Below are positions 52,275 to 62,295 of a stretch of DNA of 64,000 nucleotides, piece by piece. The stretch comes from Escherichia phage Es2: sequence record OR515477.1. One strand, 5' to 3'. Made by a program: the position numbers and the translations under genes. The number at the start of each line of letters is the position of its first letter. Position 1 is the stretch's first letter. The notes under the pieces were generated by a model that worked only from the letters and a program-made list of their open reading frames with translations, was not told where the DNA came from and did no database searches.

Positions 52275-55120
52275 AAAAAATACTAGATAGTGCTAGAAAC
52301 TACTTAAAAAATAATAGCAGAATAAAAACTGCTAGTCTAATTTCTTTAGAATTACCTGGCTCTACTGGTACTAGTACTGCTTTTATTTACTTAACTGACT
52401 ATTTTAGAGATGTACTATATAATGGTATTTTGTACCAGGCCGGTAAAGTTAAGTCTATTAGCACACATAAACAAAATAGAGATTTATCTATTGGCAGCCT
52501 ATCTTTTACTATTACAGGTACAGCGCAGGATGAAGTACTGAAATTAGTGCAGAATGGTGTATCTTTTTTAGACAGATTAGTATCAATTCACCAAGCAATT
52601 ATTACAGAAGATGGTTCTATTTTATCTGTAGACCCAGACACAAATGGGCCTTTATTATACTTTAGAGGTAGAATTACTGGTGGAGGTATTAAGGATAATA
52701 TTAGCACTTCGGGAGTTGGAACCTCCACAATTACTTGGAATTGTTCTAACCAATTCTATGATTTTGATAGGGTTAATGGTAGATTTACTGATGATGCTTC
52801 TCATAGAGGGCTTGAAGTTGTAGCAGGACAATTACTTCCATCTAACGGGGCTAAAAGACTTGAGTACCAAGAAGACTACGGTTTCTTTCATGCCAATAAA
52901 AGTATCTCTATTCTAGCAAAGTATCAGGTACAGGAAGAAAGATACAAACTAAAGTCTAAGAAAAAGCTATTTGGACTATCTAGAAGTTATAGTCTTAAAA
53001 AGTATTATGAGACTGTTACTAAAGAAGTAGATATAGATTTTAACCTTGCTGCTAAGTATATACCAGTAGTTTATGGTGTACAGAAAATACCAGGAATACC
53101 TATTTTTGCGGATACGGAATTACATAATCCTAACATAGTTTATGTAGTATATGCTTTTGCTGAAGGAGAGATAGACGGTTTTCTTGACTTTTCCTTTGGG
53201 GATAACCCTATGATTTGTATGGACTCTAATGATAGCTCCGCTAGAACCTGCTTTGGTACTAAAAAAGTGGCTGGGGACACCATGCAAAGAATAGCGTCAG
53301 GAACACCTTCTAGTAGTCCTTCCGTTCATGGGCAGGAGTATAAGTATAATGATGGTAATGGTGACATAAGAATTTGGACGTATCATGGAAAACCTGACCA
53401 AACGGCTTCTGAAGTACTAGTAGATATAGCTAAAGAACGTGGGTTCTACCTTCAGAATATGAATGGCAATGGACCGGAGTATTGGGATGCTAGGTATAAA
53501 CTACTAGATACTGCATACGCAGTGGTGCGCTTCACTATTAATGAAAATAGGACTGAGATTCCTGAAGTTAGTGCTGAAATTCAAGGTAAAAAAGTAAAAG
53601 TCTATCATTCTGATGGTAGAGTAACTGCTAATAGTACTAGTTTAAATGGTATTTGGCAAACACTTGATTACTTAACCTCTGATAGATATGGCGCTAATAT
53701 TACCCTTGATCAGTTCCCTCTTCAGCAACTAATACAGGAAGCAGCTATTTTAGATATTATAGATGAATCCTATCAGGTATCTTGGCAGCCGTATTGGAGA
53801 TACGTTGGGTGGACTGATCCACTAGCAGAAAATAGACAAATAGTACAAATGAATACTATTCTGGATACATCTGAATCAGTATTTAAAAATGTGCAAGGTT
53901 TATTAGAGTCCTACGGTGGGGCTATTAACAATTTATCTGGCCAGTATAGAGTTACTGTAGAAAAATACTCTAATACTCCGCTAGAGATTAATTTTCTAGA
54001 TACTTACGGTGATTTGGAGCTATCAGATACTACTGGTAGAAATAAATTCAATTCAGTTCAAGCATCTATCGTAGATCCCGCCCTTAGTTGGAAAACTAAT
54101 TCCATTACATTCTATAATTCCAAGTATAAGGAACAGGACAAGAACCTAGATAAAAAATTACAACTGTCTTTTGCTAATATTACTAATTATTATACTGCAA
54201 GAAGTTTTGCTGATAGGGAGCTTAAGAAATCCAGATACTCAAGAACACTCTCTTTCTCATTACCATATCAATTCATTGGTATTGAACCTAATGATGCTAT
54301 TGCATTTACATACGACCGTTATGGGTGGGATAAGAAGTATTTCCTAGTAGACGAAGTGGAAAACTCTAGGGAAGGAAAAATAAATGTTACCCTACAGGAA
54401 TATGGAGAAGATGTATTTATCAATTCTGAGCAGGTTGATAATAGCGGTAATGATATTCCTGATATTAGTAATAATGTCCTTCCTCCTAGAGACTTTAAAT
54501 ATACTCCTACTCCTGGCGGTTTAGTAGGCTCTATAGGTAAAAATGGTGAGTTATCTTGGCTTCCGAGTCTAACCAATAATGTAGTCTATTACTCTATCGT
54601 GCATTCCGGTCATGCTGAACCTTATATTGTGCAGCAACTAGAAACAAATCCCAACGAACGGATGATCCAAGAGATAATTGGAGAGTCTGCAGGTTTAGCA
54701 ATATTTGAAATAAGGGCTGTGGATATAAACGGTAGAAGAAGTTCTCCAGTAACATTATCTATAGAACTTAACTCTGCTAAAAACCTAAGTGTAGTATCTA
54801 ATTTTAGGGTAACTAATACGGCTTCTGGGGATGTAACTGAGTTTGTAGGCCCAGATGTAAAACTAGCTTGGGATAGAATACCAGAAGAAGATATAATAGA
54901 GAGTATATTCTATACTCTGGAGATCTATGATTCCCAGAATAGAATGCTAAGAAGTGTACGTATTGAAAATCAGTATACTTATGACTATTTATTAACGTAT
55001 AATAAGGCAGATTTTGCTCTTCATAACAGTGATGCTCTAGGAATCAATAGAAAACTATATTTTCGTATTAGAGCAGAAGGAGATGATGGAGAACAGTCTG
55101 TGGAGTGGGCATCCATTTAA
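52271..55120 (+). CDS. baseplate hub protein (pb3-like)
   Basis: 949 aa; position and size. Confidence 0.8.
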   Translation: MKKILDSARNYLKNNSRIKTASLISLELPGSTGTSTAFIYLTDYFRDVLYNGILYQAGKVKSISTHKQNRDLSIGSLSFTITGTAQDEVLKLVQNGVSFLDRLVSIHQAIITEDGSILSVDPDTNGPLLYFRGRITGGGIKDNISTSGVGTSTITWNCSNQFYDFDRVNGRFTDDASHRGLEVVAGQLLPSNGAKRLEYQEDYGFFHANKSISILAKYQVQEERYKLKSKKKLFGLSRSYSLKKYYETVTKEVDIDFNLAAKYIPVVYGVQKIPGIPIFADTELHNPNIVYVVYAFAEGEIDGFLDFSFGDNPMICMDSNDSSARTCFGTKKVAGDTMQRIASGTPSSSPSVHGQEYKYNDGNGDIRIWTYHGKPDQTASEVLVDIAKERGFYLQNMNGNGPEYWDARYKLLDTAYAVVRFTINENRTEIPEVSAEIQGKKVKVYHSDGRVTANSTSLNGIWQTLDYLTSDRYGANITLDQFPLQQLIQEAAILDIIDESYQVSWQPYWRYVGWTDPLAENRQIVQMNTILDTSESVFKNVQGLLESYGGAINNLSGQYRVTVEKYSNTPLEINFLDTYGDLELSDTTGRNKFNSVQASIVDPALSWKTNSITFYNSKYKEQDKNLDKKLQLSFANITNYYTARSFADRELKKSRYSRTLSFSLPYQFIGIEPNDAIAFTYDRYGWDKKYFLVDEVENSREGKINVTLQEYGEDVFINSEQVDNSGNDIPDISNNVLPPRDFKYTPTPGGLVGSIGKNGELSWLPSLTNNVVYYSIVHSGHAEPYIVQQLETNPNERMIQEIIGESAGLAIFEIRAVDINGRRSSPVTLSIELNSAKNLSVVSNFRVTNTASGDVTEFVGPDVKLAWDRIPEEDIIESIFYTLEIYDSQNRMLRSVRIENQYTYDYLLTYNKADFALHNSDALGINRKLYFRIRAEGDDGEQSVEWASI

Positions 55121-57177
55121 TGATTTCGAATAATGCACCAGCCAAAATGGTCTTAAATAGTATAATGACTGGATATACAATGGCATATGTCCAGCACTCT
55201 ATATATACTGACTATGACGTTATTGGTAGATCTTTTTGGTTAAAGACAGAAGAAAGTATAGATAGACGTGATTATACTGGTATAGATACTTTCTTCGTAA
55301 TGATTAATAATCTAACCCCTTCTACCTCCTACGGGGTTCAGGGGGCTTTCTATGACTCAATTATTGACTCAGAGTTACTGGAAGCTAAGATTGGTATCAA
55401 CCTCTCTAATGAAACTAACTTTAGAACAAAGGAAAAGCCAATAATTACTGCAGCAAGATCTGAATCAGAACCCGTCGACGTGGGTGTTGGTGCTCCAATA
55501 GTTGTTGTAGATACTACTGGGGAAGCTAGTTACTGCACTATTGAATTAAAAAGTACTGCATCAGAAGATAGTGAATGGGTTAAGTATTATATAGGCGCAT
55601 TGGGATCTACTATCAAATTTGGTGGTGTTCCGGTTGGCGACTATAAGATCAGAATATCGGGTCAAGTTACGATGCCAGATGGTGTTACAGTTGACTCATC
55701 TGGTTATTATGAATACCCTAGCGTTTTCACTGTAGCTTATAATTTCGTACCACCTACTGCACCTACTAACATTGCCTTTAAAGCTGCACGAATCGCAGAC
55801 GGTAAGGAACGATATGATGTTAGAATAGAGTGGGACTGGGAACGTGGTGCTGGTGCTAATGTCCGTGAATTTCTAGTCACTTATATAAACTCTGAGGAAT
55901 ATGCTAAGACTGGCTGGGCTAAAGCTCAAAAGATAAACGTTGGGGCTGCTAGAGCTGCAACGATCATATCATTCCCATGGAAAGTTGAGCATACTTTTAA
56001 GGTATCATCAATTGCCTGGGGACCAAATAAGCAAGATATAACAGAATCAGCTCCTGTAACATTTATATTGAATGAAGATACTCCTCTAGACAACAGCTTT
56101 GTCAATGAGACGGGTATTGATGTTAATTATGCCTTTATTAAAGGTAGTATGAAAGATGGAGAAATCTGGAGGCAGACATTCTTAATCGACGCAGCCACTG
56201 GCGCTATTAACATTGGTCTGTTAGATGAAGAAGGAAAAGCACCTATTTCTTTTGACCCTATAAACCGTGTTGTTAACGTTGATGGGAAAGTAATTACTAG
56301 AGATATTAATGCTGCAAACTTTATTATGACTAACTTATCCGGTAAGGATAATCCAGCAATTTACACTCAAGGTAAATCTTGGGGGGATAATAACTCCGGT
56401 ATTTGGATGGGCATGGATAATACCTCTGCCAAAGCTAAGTTAGACATTGGTAATGCCACACAGTGGATTCGTTATGATGGTGATGTGCTACGTATTTCTA
56501 GCGGTGTAGTAATTGGAACACCAAATGGTGACGTAGATATTGAAACTGGTTTGCAAGGCAAACAAACCGTATTTATTTATAAACTTGGTAAAAGTTTGCC
56601 AGCAAAACCATTAGAGCAAGATTATCCCCCTCCTGGTTGGTCTAAAACACCGCCTAATCGTACTGATATGACTCAGAATATCTATGCTACTACTGGTACT
56701 TTAGATCCTGTTACTAATAGATTATTAGAGGGTACTAGCTGGTCTGATGTAGTTCAGTGGAGTGGTACTGAAGGTACTATAGGGCATGACGGACAACGTG
56801 GTCCTGGGATGTACTCCTTAGGCATACCTGGTCTTGGGGGCTGGGATGATGGACAAGCTAATTCCTTCTTCCAGAATAACTTTGGTAGTCCCCCTGTTAA
56901 ATATGATGTATTAACTGAATTTAATAGTAATGCCCCACAATCAGCATTTACACGGCAATGGAATGGTTCTAGTTGGGTTAACCCTGCAATGGTTCTCCAC
57001 GGAAACATGATTGTTAATGGAACAGTGACGGCAGATAAAATTGTAGCAGGAAATGCTTTCTTGTCTCAAATTGGTGTTAATATCATCTATGATAGAAATG
57101 CTGCGTTATCCGGGAATCCTGAGGCATACTACAAGATGAAGATAGACCTAAATAGTGGGTATATCCATATAAGGTAA
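55105..57177 (+). CDS. central straight fibre protein (pb4-like)
   Basis: 690 aa; position and size. Confidence 0.75.
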   Translation: MGIHLMISNNAPAKMVLNSIMTGYTMAYVQHSIYTDYDVIGRSFWLKTEESIDRRDYTGIDTFFVMINNLTPSTSYGVQGAFYDSIIDSELLEAKIGINLSNETNFRTKEKPIITAARSESEPVDVGVGAPIVVVDTTGEASYCTIELKSTASEDSEWVKYYIGALGSTIKFGGVPVGDYKIRISGQVTMPDGVTVDSSGYYEYPSVFTVAYNFVPPTAPTNIAFKAARIADGKERYDVRIEWDWERGAGANVREFLVTYINSEEYAKTGWAKAQKINVGAARAATIISFPWKVEHTFKVSSIAWGPNKQDITESAPVTFILNEDTPLDNSFVNETGIDVNYAFIKGSMKDGEIWRQTFLIDAATGAINIGLLDEEGKAPISFDPINRVVNVDGKVITRDINAANFIMTNLSGKDNPAIYTQGKSWGDNNSGIWMGMDNTSAKAKLDIGNATQWIRYDGDVLRISSGVVIGTPNGDVDIETGLQGKQTVFIYKLGKSLPAKPLEQDYPPPGWSKTPPNRTDMTQNIYATTGTLDPVTNRLLEGTSWSDVVQWSGTEGTIGHDGQRGPGMYSLGIPGLGGWDDGQANSFFQNNFGSPPVKYDVLTEFNSNAPQSAFTRQWNGSSWVNPAMVLHGNMIVNGTVTADKIVAGNAFLSQIGVNIIYDRNAALSGNPEAYYKMKIDLNSGYIHIR

Positions 57178-57183
57178 TAAATA

Positions 57184-57606
57184 ATGAGTACTGAAAATAG
57201 AGTTATAGACTTAGTAATAGATGAGAAAGTGCCTTATGGTCTACTAATGCAATTCTTAGATGTTGATGATAGTACTTATCCCCCTACAAATACCCCTGTT
57301 AACTTAACGGGGTATTCTCTAAGGGGTACTATAAAGAATAGCCTTGATGAGACTGCGGAAACTTTAGCATCTTTTACTACTAAAATTATTGATGCTGCTC
57401 AAGGTGCTATAGCTATAAGTTTACCCATAGAAGCGGTAGAGAATATTGGTGAAAAAGCCACCAAAGAAAGAGATAGATATAACCCTCGTCAGCGATTCGC
57501 AGGATACTATGATATAATTATGACTAGAGATGTTATAGGATCTGCAATTAGCTCCTTTCGTATAATGGAGGGTAAAGTATTTATCAGTGATGGGGTAACT
57601 AAATAA
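57184..57606 (+). CDS. collar protein (p132-like)
   Basis: 140 aa; position immediately upstream of fibre genes. Confidence 0.6.
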
Positions 57607-59960
57607 TGGCAGTAACTACTAAAATTATCGTACAGCAGATATTAAATATTGATGATACTAAAGCTACTGCTAGTAAATTTCCTAGATATACAGTAACTCT
57701 AGGTAATTCTATTAGCTCTATTACTGCAAGTGAGTTAGTATCTTCTATTGAGGCAGCAGCTAAGTCTGCTGCAGCTGCAAAAGATTCTGAGATAGCGGCT
57801 AAAACTTCGGAGCTTAACGCTAAGAACTCTGAACAGGAAGCTGCTATTTCTGCTGGAGCTTCTGAAGCTTCTGCTACTCAGTCTGCTACCTCTGCTACTC
57901 AGTCTGCCACTTCTGCTACTAAATCTGCAGAATCAGCTGCAGCTGCAAAAACCTCTGAAACCAATGCTAAGTCTAGTGAAACAAAAGCTAAAACCTCCGA
58001 GACTAATGCAAAAACTAGTGAAACTAATGCAAAGTCTAGTGAAATCAAAGCTAAGGCCTCCGAGACTAATGCTAAGGCTAGTGAAACTAATGCTGCTGCT
58101 TCGGCTGCAGCGGCAAAACTTAGTGAGGATAATGCAAAAATCAGTGAGACTAATGCTGCTGCATCCGCTGCGGATTCCAGTGGTTTTAGGAATGAGGCGG
58201 AAACATTCTCTACACAAGCTGCCACATCAGCTTCTGCTGCAAAAACCTCCGAAACAAAGGCTAAAACTAGCGAAACTAATGCAAAAGCTAGTGAGACTAA
58301 AGCCAAAGCTAGTGAGACTAACGCAGCTAGTTCCGCAACTTCAGCTAGTCAGTCAGTAACTACTATTCAAGGCTTAAAATCAGATGTTGAGCAGCTAAAA
58401 TCAGATACTCAGGCCATTAAAAACAGTGCTGTAACAGAGACAACAGCTATAAAGGCAGATGTTGCGCAGTTAAAAACGGATACACAAGGTATTAAAGATA
58501 GCGCGGTAGCTGAGACAACAACTTTAAAAAACCAAGCTGCAACTTCTGCAACTAATGCTGCTAATTCTGCAGCAGAAGCGGGGAGACAGGCTACTGCTGC
58601 TGCTAATAGTACTAATACTGCTAAAACTGAAGCCGATCGTTCAAAAACTGAGGCTGATAGATCAGAAGCTGCTGCCAATGCTACTCCTGACATTCAGCCT
58701 CTTCCAGATGTATGGATACCGTTCAACGATTCACTGGATATGATTACGGGCTTTTCTCCATCTTATAAAAAGATTGTTATTGGTGACGATGAAATTACGA
58801 TGCCGGGCGACAAGATTGTTAAATTTAATCGAGCGTCTACTGCAACGTATGTTAATAAGTCTGGCGCGTTCACAATTGCTGAAATCGATGAACCAAGATT
58901 TGAACGTGAAGGTTTGCTTATTGAGGGGCAGAGAACTAATTATCTATTAAACTCAAATAAACCGCAGTCGTGGCCTATACACTCATCACTAAATAAAGAG
59001 TTTAGTAGCGACAATTTTAACTTCAACTATGCAACAGTATCGCCGACTAATGGTATTATAGGGACAACAGGTGGCTACATGATAATCAATGTTGCCACCA
59101 GAGATAGGTTTAATCTACCTAACGGTGAAAGTTTTACTTTTTCTTGTCGTGCAAAAGGTAGCAAGTGCAGACTCAGAGCGCGTGTAGCTTACGCTGGTGA
59201 TGGTGGTGCTGATGTTTTTTCGGCAGACGCATACCTTGACTTTGATTCAGTATCGGCTTCAGTAAGCGGTCAAACCAATCTTATTAGATCAAAAGTTGAA
59301 CAGCGTGGAGAATGGCTTTATTTTGAAGTGACATACACGGCGGACGCTGATCGCAACGCCATAAACTGTGCTTTCTTTTTTGCTAACAAGATTAGAGAAG
59401 AACCATTTTATGAAGATTCAACGATTACGCTAGCTACATCACAAATTGAGCTTGGCTCCTGCGCATCATCGTTTATTGTATCAGGTGGCACTCCAACCAC
59501 AAGAGCAAGTGACGTTGTGACCATTCCAGCACAAAACAACCTTGCTATTAGGCCATTTACTGTTCTTTGCGAAGTAAACAAAAATTGGACTACTCCACCA
59601 AATGTAGCCCCACGTATATTTGATGTCGGTGGGCACCAGATTGATGATAATTATTTGTCACTTGGGTTTGTATCAACAGGAAAGCTGGCTGCAAATGTCG
59701 GAATGATTCAACCGCAGATTGCTGTTGATGGGGATAAGTTTGTTGTTGGTTTAAGGGCTAAATCAGACTTATCTGTTAATGCTATATTCAATGGCAATTA
59801 TACAACTAACCCTAATGGTAAAGAGTTCGGAATCACGGCAACATCGTACCGATTCGGAGGGCAAACTGCGGCGGGAACTCGTCACTTATTTGGCCATATC
59901 CGCAATTTAAGAATCTGGTTTAAAGAGCTAACTGATAGACAAATGAAGGAGTATGTATGA
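57606..59960 (+). CDS. long tail fibre protein, proximal part (LtfA-like) with tandem repeat shaft
   Basis: 784 aa; tandem SETNAK(A/T) repeats (aa about 90-250) and Ala/Thr-rich coiled coil. Confidence 0.7.
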   Translation: MAVTTKIIVQQILNIDDTKATASKFPRYTVTLGNSISSITASELVSSIEAAAKSAAAAKDSEIAAKTSELNAKNSEQEAAISAGASEASATQSATSATQSATSATKSAESAAAAKTSETNAKSSETKAKTSETNAKTSETNAKSSEIKAKASETNAKASETNAAASAAAAKLSEDNAKISETNAAASAADSSGFRNEAETFSTQAATSASAAKTSETKAKTSETNAKASETKAKASETNAASSATSASQSVTTIQGLKSDVEQLKSDTQAIKNSAVTETTAIKADVAQLKTDTQGIKDSAVAETTTLKNQAATSATNAANSAAEAGRQATAAANSTNTAKTEADRSKTEADRSEAAANATPDIQPLPDVWIPFNDSLDMITGFSPSYKKIVIGDDEITMPGDKIVKFNRASTATYVNKSGAFTIAEIDEPRFEREGLLIEGQRTNYLLNSNKPQSWPIHSSLNKEFSSDNFNFNYATVSPTNGIIGTTGGYMIINVATRDRFNLPNGESFTFSCRAKGSKCRLRARVAYAGDGGADVFSADAYLDFDSVSASVSGQTNLIRSKVEQRGEWLYFEVTYTADADRNAINCAFFFANKIREEPFYEDSTITLATSQIELGSCASSFIVSGGTPTTRASDVVTIPAQNNLAIRPFTVLCEVNKNWTTPPNVAPRIFDVGGHQIDDNYLSLGFVSTGKLAANVGMIQPQIAVDGDKFVVGLRAKSDLSVNAIFNGNYTTNPNGKEFGITATSYRFGGQTAAGTRHLFGHIRNLRIWFKELTDRQMKEYV
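57880..58350 (+). repeat. in-frame tandem repeats (about 21-bp units) within the fibre gene
   Basis: Repeated ACTAGTGAAACTAATGCAAAA-like units encode the SETNAK heptads; generates spurious ORFs in other frames. Confidence 0.8.
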
Positions 59961-60235
59961 GAGATATAATCCTAAAATTCACGGATAAATCAGCATATAA
60001 AGATTTTCTCTTAAAAATAGAGTGGGATACTAATGAAACTTTGCAAAACCAAATAATGCTTGATGAAATTGGATATACTTATACTGAAATCTCTCCGCTA
60101 GGTGATGATGAGCCTAGATGCATCCGTAATGAGGGGTATTATGTTAATGTAAGGATTCTTGATGAATCCTTTACTTACGAATACTTTGAGCCTTTTATAG
60201 TTCAGCTAGAACAGCCTCTTAGAGAGTGGGCATAA
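59957..60235 (+). CDS. hypothetical protein between the fibre genes
   Basis: Track ORF 92 aa; ATGA overlap with upstream gene. Confidence 0.5.
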   Translation: MRDIILKFTDKSAYKDFLLKIEWDTNETLQNQIMLDEIGYTYTEISPLGDDEPRCIRNEGYYVNVRILDESFTYEYFEPFIVQLEQPLREWA

Positions 60236-60244
60236 GGTTTTATA

Positions 60245-61990
60245 ATGGTAACTAAAACAGTAATTCCTACGGATATTACAAAACTTAAAAACGAGTCACT
60301 TAATAAGAATAATAACCTGAGTGACTTAGCAGACCGTGCAGCAGCATGGCTAAATGTGCGTCCTATTGGATCCACCCCTCTTGCGGGGGATCCTGTTGGG
60401 GACTATGATGCCGCAACTAAACGTTGGGTAGAGAATAAGATTAACACTGGTACAGTTGGACCCACTATGAATGGTGTTATGAACTACGGTGTTGGTGATT
60501 TTCACCTCCGAGATAGTCGTGCATATATTCAACCATACGAAGTCGTTTCTGACGGACAGCTTCTTAATAGGGCTGACTGGCCTGAGCTTTGGGCTTATGC
60601 TCAGATGGTTGGGCTTATAGAGGATTCCGTCTGGTTAGCGGATAAATTCCAGCGTGGTAAATACTCATCAGGAGATGGAACAACAACTTTTCGTGTTCCA
60701 GATAGGAATGGGGTACAGCAAGGGTCAATACGTGCTCTTTATGGTCGTGGTGATGGCGGTATGTCCGACGCTAACGGTCGTGCTTTTGAATCCGCTGCAC
60801 CGAATATTACAGGTGCTGTTCCTAGCTACTCAGGAGGTATGTATGCTCAGGTATTCGGTTCTGCTGCTAGAGGTGCATTCTTTTCTGATAATATGCTTTT
60901 TCCTAACGGGGATGGGGATGTCATCCCTGCAGGTAAGACACCGCTTACTGGCCGTTGTAACACGCTAAATTTTGACGCCTCACGTTCAAGTCCAATTTAC
61001 GGAGCATCAAATGATGAGATTCTTACACGAAATTTTGTAGGTGTATGGGTGATTCGTGCATCTGGTGGTTTCGTTGCAGCAAATACATCATGGAGTGTTA
61101 TTAACGGCGATGCGACCAGACCGATAGACGGCACAAGAGTTGAATCAGGGAAAGTAAGCGTAGAATATAAGATTGGAACGGCTATTGAGGCGCAGGGTAA
61201 TGTCTATACTGCTGCAACAATGGGTGGGGCATATTCTACCCAGCTCTCTGTTAAAAATGCCACTACGGGCAAAGAGAAAGATATCAGCGTCACAGAAGAT
61301 GGTGATCTGTGGTCCGACCGCTTTAAGGCTAGATTTGGCACCCGTATGGCTTGGGCTCAGACCGGCTGGGCCTATGGCACATTTTCCCAAGCCAACCAAT
61401 CCATCGGTAACGACTACAATTTCTACAGTATTCTTAGCGGCTCCCAAAGTTCAAGCACGGGCTATAAAACTCATACCCATATTGGTCAAATCCACAATGA
61501 CAACGGTTCATTTGCTGATAGCTGCTGGCATGTTGCAGGTGATGATGATAACAAATATGGTGTACGTTTAAAAATTCAGCCTAATAATAATAGTATTTAT
61601 TTCTATTCTTGGTGGCCTGGTGCTTCAGCAGTCTATACTTTGCAATTAAATGCTGTATCTGATTCTCGCTTAAAGCATGATATTAAGGCTATAGACGCAA
61701 CTAAGTCCATCGAGGTATTAAAAGGATTAGAATTCCAATCCTTTGTATATAATAACGATGAAAAATCTCGCGTCCGACGTGGGGTTATTGCTCAGCAAGT
61801 AGAGACTATAGAACCACTTTATGTAAAAACTAGAAGATTTTATAATAATGATGGGGTGGAGCAAGAACAGAAGGAATTAGATACGACTCCAATGCTTCTT
61901 GACACTATGCATGTCGTGCAAGAACTTATAAAACGGATTGAATCTTTGGAAGAAGAACTCAAACAATTAAAAGTACAATTAGTACAGTAA
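60245..61990 (+). CDS. long tail fibre protein, distal part (LtfB-like) with C-terminal intramolecular-chaperone-like domain
   Basis: 581 aa; C-terminal SDSRLKHDI...RRGVIAQQVE segment and terminal coiled coil resemble self-cleaving fibre chaperone domains. Confidence 0.65.
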   Translation: MVTKTVIPTDITKLKNESLNKNNNLSDLADRAAAWLNVRPIGSTPLAGDPVGDYDAATKRWVENKINTGTVGPTMNGVMNYGVGDFHLRDSRAYIQPYEVVSDGQLLNRADWPELWAYAQMVGLIEDSVWLADKFQRGKYSSGDGTTTFRVPDRNGVQQGSIRALYGRGDGGMSDANGRAFESAAPNITGAVPSYSGGMYAQVFGSAARGAFFSDNMLFPNGDGDVIPAGKTPLTGRCNTLNFDASRSSPIYGASNDEILTRNFVGVWVIRASGGFVAANTSWSVINGDATRPIDGTRVESGKVSVEYKIGTAIEAQGNVYTAATMGGAYSTQLSVKNATTGKEKDISVTEDGDLWSDRFKARFGTRMAWAQTGWAYGTFSQANQSIGNDYNFYSILSGSQSSSTGYKTHTHIGQIHNDNGSFADSCWHVAGDDDNKYGVRLKIQPNNNSIYFYSWWPGASAVYTLQLNAVSDSRLKHDIKAIDATKSIEVLKGLEFQSFVYNNDEKSRVRRGVIAQQVETIEPLYVKTRRFYNNDGVEQEQKELDTTPMLLDTMHVVQELIKRIESLEEELKQLKVQLVQ

Positions 61991-61995
61991 TAAAA

Positions 61996-62030
61996 GAAAA
62001 CCCCAGTGGACAAAATCCACTGGGGTTTTA
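61996..62030. terminator. bidirectional intrinsic terminator between convergent genes
   Basis: Hairpin CCCCAGTGGA...TCCACTGGGG flanked by an A-run upstream and T-run downstream. Confidence 0.8.
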
Positions 62031-62034
62031 TTAC

Positions 62035-62295
62035 TTATTTACTGCCTTCTATAATACCAAGATTATAAATGGCTAAAAGGAATTTTAAATGCTCATTGTC
62101 ACTATTAGTGCAAAGTTCTATAAAACCTTCAGGATCCCAAAAAGTAACATTACCTTCTTTATCTGTTTTCAGCACAAACTTTTCGGATTCAGTGGTTTTA
62201 ATCTGATAAGTAGACATATTGGTATTAACAATACCTACCATACTAGGGTTAGTAAAATTATTTGTTTCCTGAACTTCCAAATCCACCTTCTCCAC
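62035..62295 (-). CDS. hypothetical protein
   Basis: Track ORF 86 aa; overlaps start of dUTPase gene region. Confidence 0.5.
   Translation of the reverse strand: MEKVDLEVQETNNFTNPSMVGIVNTNMSTYQIKTTESEKFVLKTDKEGNVTFWDPEGFIELCTNSDNEHLKFLLAIYNLGIIEGSK

Follow-up and report, generated by a model that had tools for sequence, protein, structure and literature searches.

A probable multi-protein lateral tail fibre in the T5-like phage Es2 and a candidate portable junction between its proximal and distal parts

How is a tail fibre held together when its proximal and distal parts are encoded as separate proteins, with a small gene lying between them? This question is raised by a locus of Escherichia phage Es2 (record OR515477.1), of which we analysed a stretch of 64,000 nucleotides (nt), referred to here as the window, that forms part of a T5-like (Tequintavirus) genome. 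Three adjacent genes encode a protein of 784 amino acids (aa; protein A), a 92-aa protein and a 581-aa protein (protein B). An earlier note, drawn up from the sequence alone, had located these three open reading frames (ORFs) exactly as they are found here (Table 1) and had read them as a two-component fibre with its own receptor specificity, which fits both their collinearity with genes 22-24 of phage IrisVonRoten and mass spectrometry of phage SIA3lw. It had also treated the arrangement as unusual, which it is not: the arrangement is common and already published.

Most likely, the product of the locus is a lateral (L-shaped) tail fibre of the T5-like kind that is assembled from several proteins: the long proximal protein A, the 92-aa protein and the distal receptor-binding protein B. 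More tentatively, and with rather less than an even chance of being right, we propose that a conserved ‘neck’ in A, the 92-aa protein and an N-terminal ‘plug’ on B form a portable fibre junction that has been exchanged by at least five tail lineages, in which the 92-aa protein would represent an unrecognised class of adaptor, possibly a divergent PKD-like one.

Protein A: anchor, shaft and lectin-like module

The fibre unit runs in the order pb4, LtfC, A, 92-aa ORF, B and terminator. The collar protein gene LtfC directly adjoins A, and the locus lies between pb4 and the dUTPase and flap endonuclease genes, the same placement as in IrisVonRoten and in phage DT57C; pb3 and the central fibre protein pb4 (four PB4 Pfam domains, 55105-57177) are encoded upstream, and the dUTPase and flap endonuclease ORFs follow downstream on the opposite strand. 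The beginning of A is of the T5 type, with residues 1-218 matching DT57C LtfA (PDB 8hqz_d) over residues 1-233 (E 1.3e-37) and with a match to PHROG 24369, a profile of pb1 length (E 3.3e-48). In the DT57C structure a dodecameric LtfC ring holds the N-termini of the lateral fibres, the part of LtfA that precedes T40 forms a lasso in the collar, and the helix starting at T40 forms a trimeric coiled coil (Nat Commun 2023, PMC10713586). By analogy, A would be the proximal part of the fibre, its first ~40 residues inserting into the LtfC collar and its Ala/Ser-heptad coiled coil, of evolutionarily adjustable length, serving as the shaft.

Table 1. Features of the lateral fibre locus of phage Es2 (positions are those of the window)
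Feature	Position	Strand	Basis
LtfC/p132 collar protein, 140 aa	57184-57606	+	Pfam PF23926 LtfC, E 7.1e-14; PHROG ‘collar tail protein for L-shaped tail fibre attachment’
Protein A, 784 aa	57606-59960	+	ORF
A aa 1-40, N-terminal anchor, predicted to insert into the LtfC collar	57606-57725	+	match to DT57C LtfA; lasso before T40 in DT57C
A aa 41-361, Ala/Ser-rich alpha-helical shaft	57726-58688	+	heptad register; Tandem Repeats Finder arrays; DT57C LtfA coiled coil
A aa 362-444, conserved ‘neck’ (QPLPDVWIPFNDSLDM...EPRFER.GLLIEGQRTNY)	58689-58937	+	allele conservation, many invariant columns
A aa 445-784, lectin-like C-terminal module	58938-59957	+	hypervariable jelly-roll, second part, conserved tail (...FGHIRNLRIWFKELTDRQMKEYV)
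92-aa ORF	59957-60235	+	ATGA (4-bp) overlap with the end of A
Protein B, 581 aa	60245-61990	+	ORF
B aa 1-20, N-terminal ‘plug’ (MVTKTVIPTDITKLK...), putative docking peptide	60245-60304	+	motif shared by unrelated distal fibres
B aa 21-471, stem and variable receptor-binding regions	60305-61657	+	DT57C and IrisVonRoten similarity; variability map
B aa 472-581 and stop, Peptidase_S74 intramolecular chaperone and C-terminal coiled coil	61658-61990	+	PF13884; SDSRLK motif
Bidirectional intrinsic terminator	61997-62029	both	14-15 bp GC-rich stem, T runs on either strand

Within the shaft, a heptad array covers aa 51-253 (nt 57756-58364) in an A-x-x-S-x-x-x register that is uninterrupted over 29 heptads, and two 25-aa repeats follow at nt 58381-58528, where Tandem Repeats Finder reports a 75-bp unit present twice. 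The same program detects period-21 arrays at 57861-57929, 57956-58094, 58113-58156 and 58250-58325, together with a period-63 array at 57944-58093 (score 216). The ‘about 20’ SETNAK(A/T) heptads of the earlier note are fair as a loose description, but the strict motif SETNAK[AT] occurs only three times, the looser SE[TIDL][NK]AK[ATSI] ten times, and AKxSExx-type heptads, counted by reading the listing, about 16 times in three blocks. The suggestion that the array is a likely site of length variation is borne out among 16 T5-like A proteins, in which the neck motif lies at residue 126, 203, 217, 253, 263, 267, 358 or 365 and most shaft indels are whole multiples of a heptad (7, 84, 98 or 112 aa) or a single 25-aa unit.

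Beyond the shaft, conservation is distributed very unevenly. Over 14 alleles that are otherwise 38-95% identical, mean pairwise identity is 76-94% in the neck (from aa 362 or 365 to 444) and 22-45% in the jelly-roll that follows it (aa 445-604), while the second part of the C-terminal module, which bears weak ConA/LamG-like similarity, ends in a conserved tail (FGHIRNLRIWFKELTDRQMKEYV). The stretch of A that begins near residue 362 is a mobile module in its own right. It shares 94-95% identity with the C-terminal end of a tail protein (688 aa) of phage JenP2, and 74% with side tail fibre proteins from Escherichia coli prophages whose N-terminus is of the lambda type (PF08400). Alleles of this module, which are 38-95% identical to one another, are spread irrespective of tail type, and at the DNA level the Es2 allele is common, in the phage collection, only to JenP2 (93%).

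Several lines of evidence bear on what this module does. Residues 438-634 match the NCBIfam model NF048003, ‘phage head spike fiber domain’ (64.9 bits, cut-off 36), and a profile of the module matches the head spike fibre Rcc01080 of the Rhodobacter capsulatus gene transfer agent (RcGTA; PDB 6tb9, 6tb9_F3) with E 6.6e-11. An AlphaFold2 (AF2) monomer contains a confident central jelly-roll with structural matches to carbohydrate-binding modules (CBMs), so that the proximal protein carries the kind of lectin- or galectin-like C-terminus seen in IrisVonRoten (Bas32). Pfam gave no match to A; when matches up to E 10 are admitted, the C-terminal part yields only a weak Laminin_G_3 (ConA-like) similarity (E 0.034). 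The homology to Rcc01080, the hypervariable jelly-roll and the conserved neck together fit a glycan-binding domain mounted on a connector, and the C-terminal module is therefore probably a receptor domain of that kind, with the neck as a candidate docking region for the 92-aa protein, the plug of B, or both. New here are the homology of the A module to the RcGTA head spike fibre and its jelly-roll of carbohydrate-binding type, as well as the whole-heptad length changes of the shaft noted above and, as set out below, the constant pairing of the module with the 92-aa gene and the restriction of likeness among unrelated distal fibres to the plug. Rcc01080 is homologous to the central part of the module; unlike A, it decorates a capsid rather than forming the end of a tail fibre, and neither a 92-aa partner nor a plug-bearing distal protein is known for it.

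Protein B: plug, receptor-binding body and chaperone

Protein B has no tail-specific anchor, and its first residues offer the best indication of how it could be attached. Distal fibres from five phage backgrounds, with bodies that fall into three unrelated classes, start with the motif M-x-[TS]-x-T-x-IP-x-DI-x-x-LK. Besides B itself, this plug (MVTKTVIPTDITKLK, ~15 residues) is carried by a 348-aa S74 protein of JenP2, by Drexlerviridae and lambdoid prophage proteins of 224-234 and ~346 aa, and by the 303-aa P2-type tip of a P2-like prophage, which is followed by its own Caudo_TAP chaperone. These unrelated distal fibres have only the ~15-residue N-terminal plug in common, and the distal fibre subunits of Drexlerviridae were reported in the BASEL-I study to be conserved only at the far N-terminus. 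Since distal fibres that have nothing else in common begin with it, the plug stands as the sole candidate element by which B could be attached; as the distal part of the fibre, B would attach to the end of A through these ~15-20 N-terminal residues.

The body that follows would present further variable receptor-binding regions. Within its class, the stem (aa 21-120) is 89-98% conserved, aa 181-240 are ~20% identical, and the remainder up to the chaperone is moderately variable. B shares ~45% identity with the distal regions of LtfA (residues 511-1073) and LtfB (206-785) of DT57C alike, and 76% with Gp24 of IrisVonRoten. Following the BASEL-II analysis, we label aa ~121-280 a Gp12-like receptor-binding domain (RBD1) and aa ~281-471 a T5-like RBD2, the Gp12-like label for RBD1 being based on the 76% identity to Gp24 and on that analysis (PMC11990801).

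The C-terminus of B has the signature of an intramolecular chaperone (IMC). Pfam PF13884 (Peptidase_S74) matches aa 472-524 (46.7 bits, cut-off 22; E 3.9e-12), the motif SDSRLK (aa 472-477, with Ser472 and Lys477) stands at the start of the domain, and a profile of B matches two chains in the S74 region, the distal subunit of the S16 long tail fibre (6f45) and the ICA domain of MYRF (7dc3). As had been noticed from the sequence, such a C-terminus belongs to the distal protein only, A being without any Pfam match. B is predicted to be folded with the help of this S74 chaperone, which would then remove itself by autoproteolysis at Ser472.

The 92-aa protein and the proposed junction

The neighbourhood of the 92-aa gene was compared across 86 loci, namely those with this gene and available upstream sequence, in a set whose 45 prophage loci are highly redundant. 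The upstream gene ends in the A module in all 86. On the 3' side, 35 loci have a B that bears the plug, 45 have an unrelated membrane-like ORF of 97 aa, and in five a downstream gene is absent. With the A module upstream in every locus and B present in only 35, the 92-aa protein is tied, as far as gene neighbourhood tells, to the A module, which always travels with its gene, and not to B. The complete cassette (A module, 92-aa gene and plug-bearing B) is found in T5-like, Queuovirinae, Drexlerviridae, lambdoid and P2-like backgrounds. In a P2-like prophage of E. coli GCA_024165985.1 (locus L091, 1-3999), an A module, the 92-aa gene, the plug-bearing 303-aa fibre (uncalled in the source annotation) and then a Caudo_TAP gene are joined to a myovirus-type fibre N-terminus (PF12571/PF03406), which means that the cassette crosses the boundary between siphoviruses and myoviruses.

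Might A and B nevertheless be a single long fibre gene split by a sequencing or assembly frameshift, an outcome that the earlier note itself regarded as fatal to its proposal? The idea gains some footing from DT57C LtfA, one protein of 1076 aa whose first ~230 residues match A and whose residues 511-1073 match B. However, A has ~420 residues (neck and lectin-like module) that are absent from LtfA, the 92-aa ORF represents a conserved protein family, and the gene boundaries, including the 4-bp overlap, are repeated in IrisVonRoten (796/92/574 aa), in JenP2 (688/92/348 aa) and in 86 loci in all, spanning several lineages. Mass spectrometry of SIA3lw phage proteins, moreover, identified the homologues of both large proteins separately, with predicted masses of 82 and 64 kDa. 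A frameshift artefact has virtually no chance of being the explanation, and we reject it on the strength of the conserved gene boundaries.

Some details of the gene layout may be recorded alongside. The 92-aa ORF and B share a reading frame, separated by a TAA stop and three codons, with the start of B 288 nt after that of the 92-aa ORF; this spacing recurs in JenP2 and in most prophage loci, and it is 289 nt in two loci (L067 and L068), so that read-through from the 92-aa ORF into B is unlikely to matter. In one T5-like relative (IMGVR_UViG_2974655058, 109,654 bp; L009:6289-7231) the distal fibre gene is broken into a 64-aa plug ORF and an overlapping 277-aa ORF in another frame, representing either a pseudogene or a sequencing error.

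The 92-aa protein itself (10.9 kDa) corresponds to PHROG 1361 and occurs in 206 phage records, where it is always annotated as hypothetical; identity within the family is 54-95%, with 25 invariant columns. Searches of Pfam, NCBIfam and the PDB by sequence returned no match, which places it outside the Caudo_TAP/Tfa proteins, and locus L091 encodes a genuine Caudo_TAP in addition to it. AF2 predicts an alpha/beta fold (pLDDT 80), for which a structural search found no informative relatives. Compared with 1.84 billion representative sequences, a profile of the family retrieved stand-alone proteins of ~90 aa as well as tandem repeats in giant proteins. The latter are PKD_4 domains scoring 5-15 bits each, with E-values inflated by summation, and were rejected as fusions of the 92-aa protein on that account; in P0285, P0287, P0291, P0299, P0310 and others (1,100-6,100 aa) the repeats, of the type WGDG...HQYLDD...YTVNVRV.DDDGG, keep one register with the 92-aa profile. 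An hhalign comparison of the family with PKD-type repeats gave 88.6% probability over 66 columns, the Pfam PKD models gave no match, and the AF2 model is not all-beta; we regard a distant PKD-like relationship of the 92-aa protein as no more than possible.

Two further sets of homologues came to light. Distant relatives of the 92-aa protein (~35% identity over 70 residues) are encoded in the ~136-kb rV5-like myoviruses LL12, ime and APECc02 (H150-H159), next to tail fibre genes in the poorly assigned multi-fibre loci of Vequintavirinae. The enterobacterial fibre cassette also turns up, with 35-94% identity at the protein level, in several records labelled as Listeria or Campylobacter phages (OR847733, OR848352, MG065676 and others). 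Some of these records span just a few kb, as fragments, and the organism labels look doubtful. Scanning a single genome of each species for the 92-aa gene produced only one marginal match and was uninformative.

Two roles for the 92-aa protein deserve to be weighed against each other, a structural one (adaptor or clamp) and one in assembly, and either would place it at the junction on the side of the A module. It may be a virion component that sits on the neck of the A trimer and forms a socket for the plug of B, so that B could not attach without it, a proposal that we hold to be possible but somewhat doubtful. It is suggested by the layout of the operon, in which the gene is flanked by A and B without an intervening terminator, by the conservation of neck, 92-aa protein and plug across alleles and their co-occurrence in five tail lineages, by the possible remote similarity to PKD-type extracellular repeats (hhalign 88.6%), and by the fact that B proteins already have chaperones of their own. 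Arguing against an adaptor are the retention of the gene in 45 prophage loci without B, the alpha/beta rather than Ig-like AF2 model and lack of a match to Pfam PKD models, and the observation that co-variation is inseparable from simple linkage; nor has the protein ever been reported in virion proteomics, though the gels used would miss a protein of ~11 kDa. The alternative is a non-structural chaperone for assembly of the lectin-like module of A, comparable to Tfa or gp38-type helpers, with B docking directly on A. Fibre chaperones are typically encoded where this gene lies, immediately 3' of the fibre gene and overlapping it by 4 bp; the gene accompanies the A module strictly, also in loci that lack B; and A has no intramolecular chaperone of its own; this second role is a serious contender that falls only a little short of an even chance. 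A third role, as folding chaperone of B, was rejected, given that the classes of B bodies bring their own folding aid in the form of an IMC or a separate Caudo_TAP.

A further possibility is that A and B are independent fibres, A alone forming the lateral fibre and B sitting elsewhere on the tail tip. The many prophages with A and the 92-aa gene but no B would be in keeping with this, as would weak densities near the tail tip in cryo-electron microscopy of DT57C, which its authors tentatively assigned to folded-back LtfB (PMC10713586). The plug, however, keeps one and the same style whether the background is siphovirus, lambdoid or P2-like myovirus, with baseplates that differ, and always follows the A-module cassette; apart from the fibre itself, no T5 tail protein resembles B, and BASEL-II models Gp24 on Gp22 (PMC11990801). 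We therefore regard independent fibres as improbable, and infer that A and B are in physical contact.

Returning to the assembly of A, the 92-aa protein and B into one fibre, some results weigh against it or against parts of it. The AF2 monomer of A is of low confidence in the neck and in the last ~170 residues. The Gp12 likeness of RBD1 in B reaches only E 0.035 with the Pfam Collar model, below the cut-off, and a PDB profile search with B did not reach T4 gp12 or gp37. Finally, B is missing from many E. coli prophages that retain A and the 92-aa gene; these two proteins can evidently make up a whole fibre, and an adaptor function towards B is not required of the 92-aa protein.

In these B-less prophages (L003-L005 and L015-L062, nearly identical E. 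coli lambdoid prophages) a Stf-like A of 673-689 aa and the 92-aa gene are followed, in place of a distal fibre, by the 97-aa membrane-like ORF (MDISPLLHALCAVAAQ...). In L003-L005 this ORF lies at the edge of the prophage, beside an operon for an ABC metal transporter, and it is also found 3' of B in prophages that possess B.

At the far end of the Es2 locus, the terminator at 61997-62029 marks the boundary between the fibre operon and the convergent dUTPase unit, and nothing comparable to it lies between A, the 92-aa ORF and B. An 86-aa ORF on the minus strand (62035-62295), between this terminator and the dUTPase gene, is absent from IrisVonRoten; it is an ordinary T5-like gene, conserved as hypothetical in 343 T5-like records.

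Relation to known fibres and meaning

Lateral fibres encoded by two genes were described in the T5-like phage AKFV33 in 2012, where ORF137 and ORF135 flank an undiscussed ORF136, and were analysed genetically in DT57C (Viruses 2016, PMC4728585); BASEL-I likewise spoke of fibres composed of ‘2 (or more) separate proteins’. The closest counterpart of the Es2 locus is that of IrisVonRoten (Gp22-Gp23-Gp24), a phage of the same genus with a collinear locus (796/92/574 aa versus 784/92/581 aa in Es2), an identical shaft layout without indels, a lectin-like proximal C-terminus and an IMC on the distal protein. For this phage, AlphaFold-Multimer modelling in BASEL-II (PLoS Biol 2025, PMC11990801) gave a Gp22 that is proximal and has a galectin-like domain at its C-terminus, and a distal Gp24 that is T-shaped, with two RBDs (Gp12-like RBD1 and T5-like RBD2) and an IMC; the 92-aa protein and the docking interface are not treated in that paper. 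The fibre of Es2 may be branched or serial. Published evidence for the T shape, and for the mounting of the distal fibre on the proximal one, is this AlphaFold-Multimer model. Unlike the shaft, the lectin-like module of A is just 45% identical to that of Bas32, as against 95% to that of JenP2, an unrelated phage of ~60 kb, and B diverges in its variable receptor-binding regions. IrisVonRoten infects E. coli K-12 with restored O16 O-antigen (PMC11990801); with a different A allele and diverged receptor-binding regions in B, a receptor specificity other than O16 is to be expected for Es2.

DT57C and DT571/2 resemble Es2 in being T5-like, in having an LtfC collar with an LtfA-type anchor and coiled coil, and in building the fibre from two proteins, the second attached through the first, with distal bodies that are ~45% homologous. 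In contrast to Es2, where only B carries it, S74 is present on both LtfA and LtfB, there is no 92-aa gene, and a phiEco32-gp15-like N-terminus of LtfB docks on a gp14-like region of LtfA (aa 223-471), neither of which is found in Es2. By BLASTP, A aligns only to LtfA residues 1-252 and B to LtfB from residue 206, the N-termini of B and LtfB being unrelated, and B matches the distal half of LtfA as much as it matches LtfB. Membership of the LtfA/LtfB type was rejected, as B is without the LtfB N-terminus and A is without both the gp14-like region and S74.

The T5 fibre pb1 (Ltf), which binds O-antigen, occupies the same genomic position and shares the N-terminal anchor family (PHROG 24369) and a C-terminal S74 domain, but is a single protein of 1396 aa, whereas in Es2 two proteins, A and B, share the fibre, to which a lectin-like module and a small protein at the junction are added. 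Lambda Stf and Tfa provide a parallel of another kind. The prophage versions of A have the PF08400 N-terminus, sit after gpJ and lom and are followed by a small gene; however, the A module and the 92-aa protein are unrelated to the Stf tip and to the Caudo_TAP-type Tfa, and a third, plug-bearing fibre gene often follows in A-type prophages.

While the architecture has thus been published before, the 5-kb fibre region is covered to at most 66% by any record of the phage collection, and the A allele is shared at the DNA level with JenP2 only; the allele combination is therefore new, and its glycan specificity is presumably new as well. Lateral fibres set which O-antigens a T5-like phage penetrates, so that this combination, a JenP2-like lectin module on A with a B 76% identical to that of Bas32, predicts a host range unlike that of characterised relatives. 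It is useful for choosing or engineering phages rather than a new principle. The wider interest lies in the junction, at which proximal and distal fibre parts of different phage families are joined by the same neck, small protein and N-terminal plug. Should the plug be all that attachment requires, distal receptor-binding proteins could be exchanged among phages by a simple rule; and if the portable junction is real, every proximal fibre ending in the module could take up any plug-headed distal fibre, and a small family annotated as ‘hypothetical’ in ~200 phage genomes would acquire a function.

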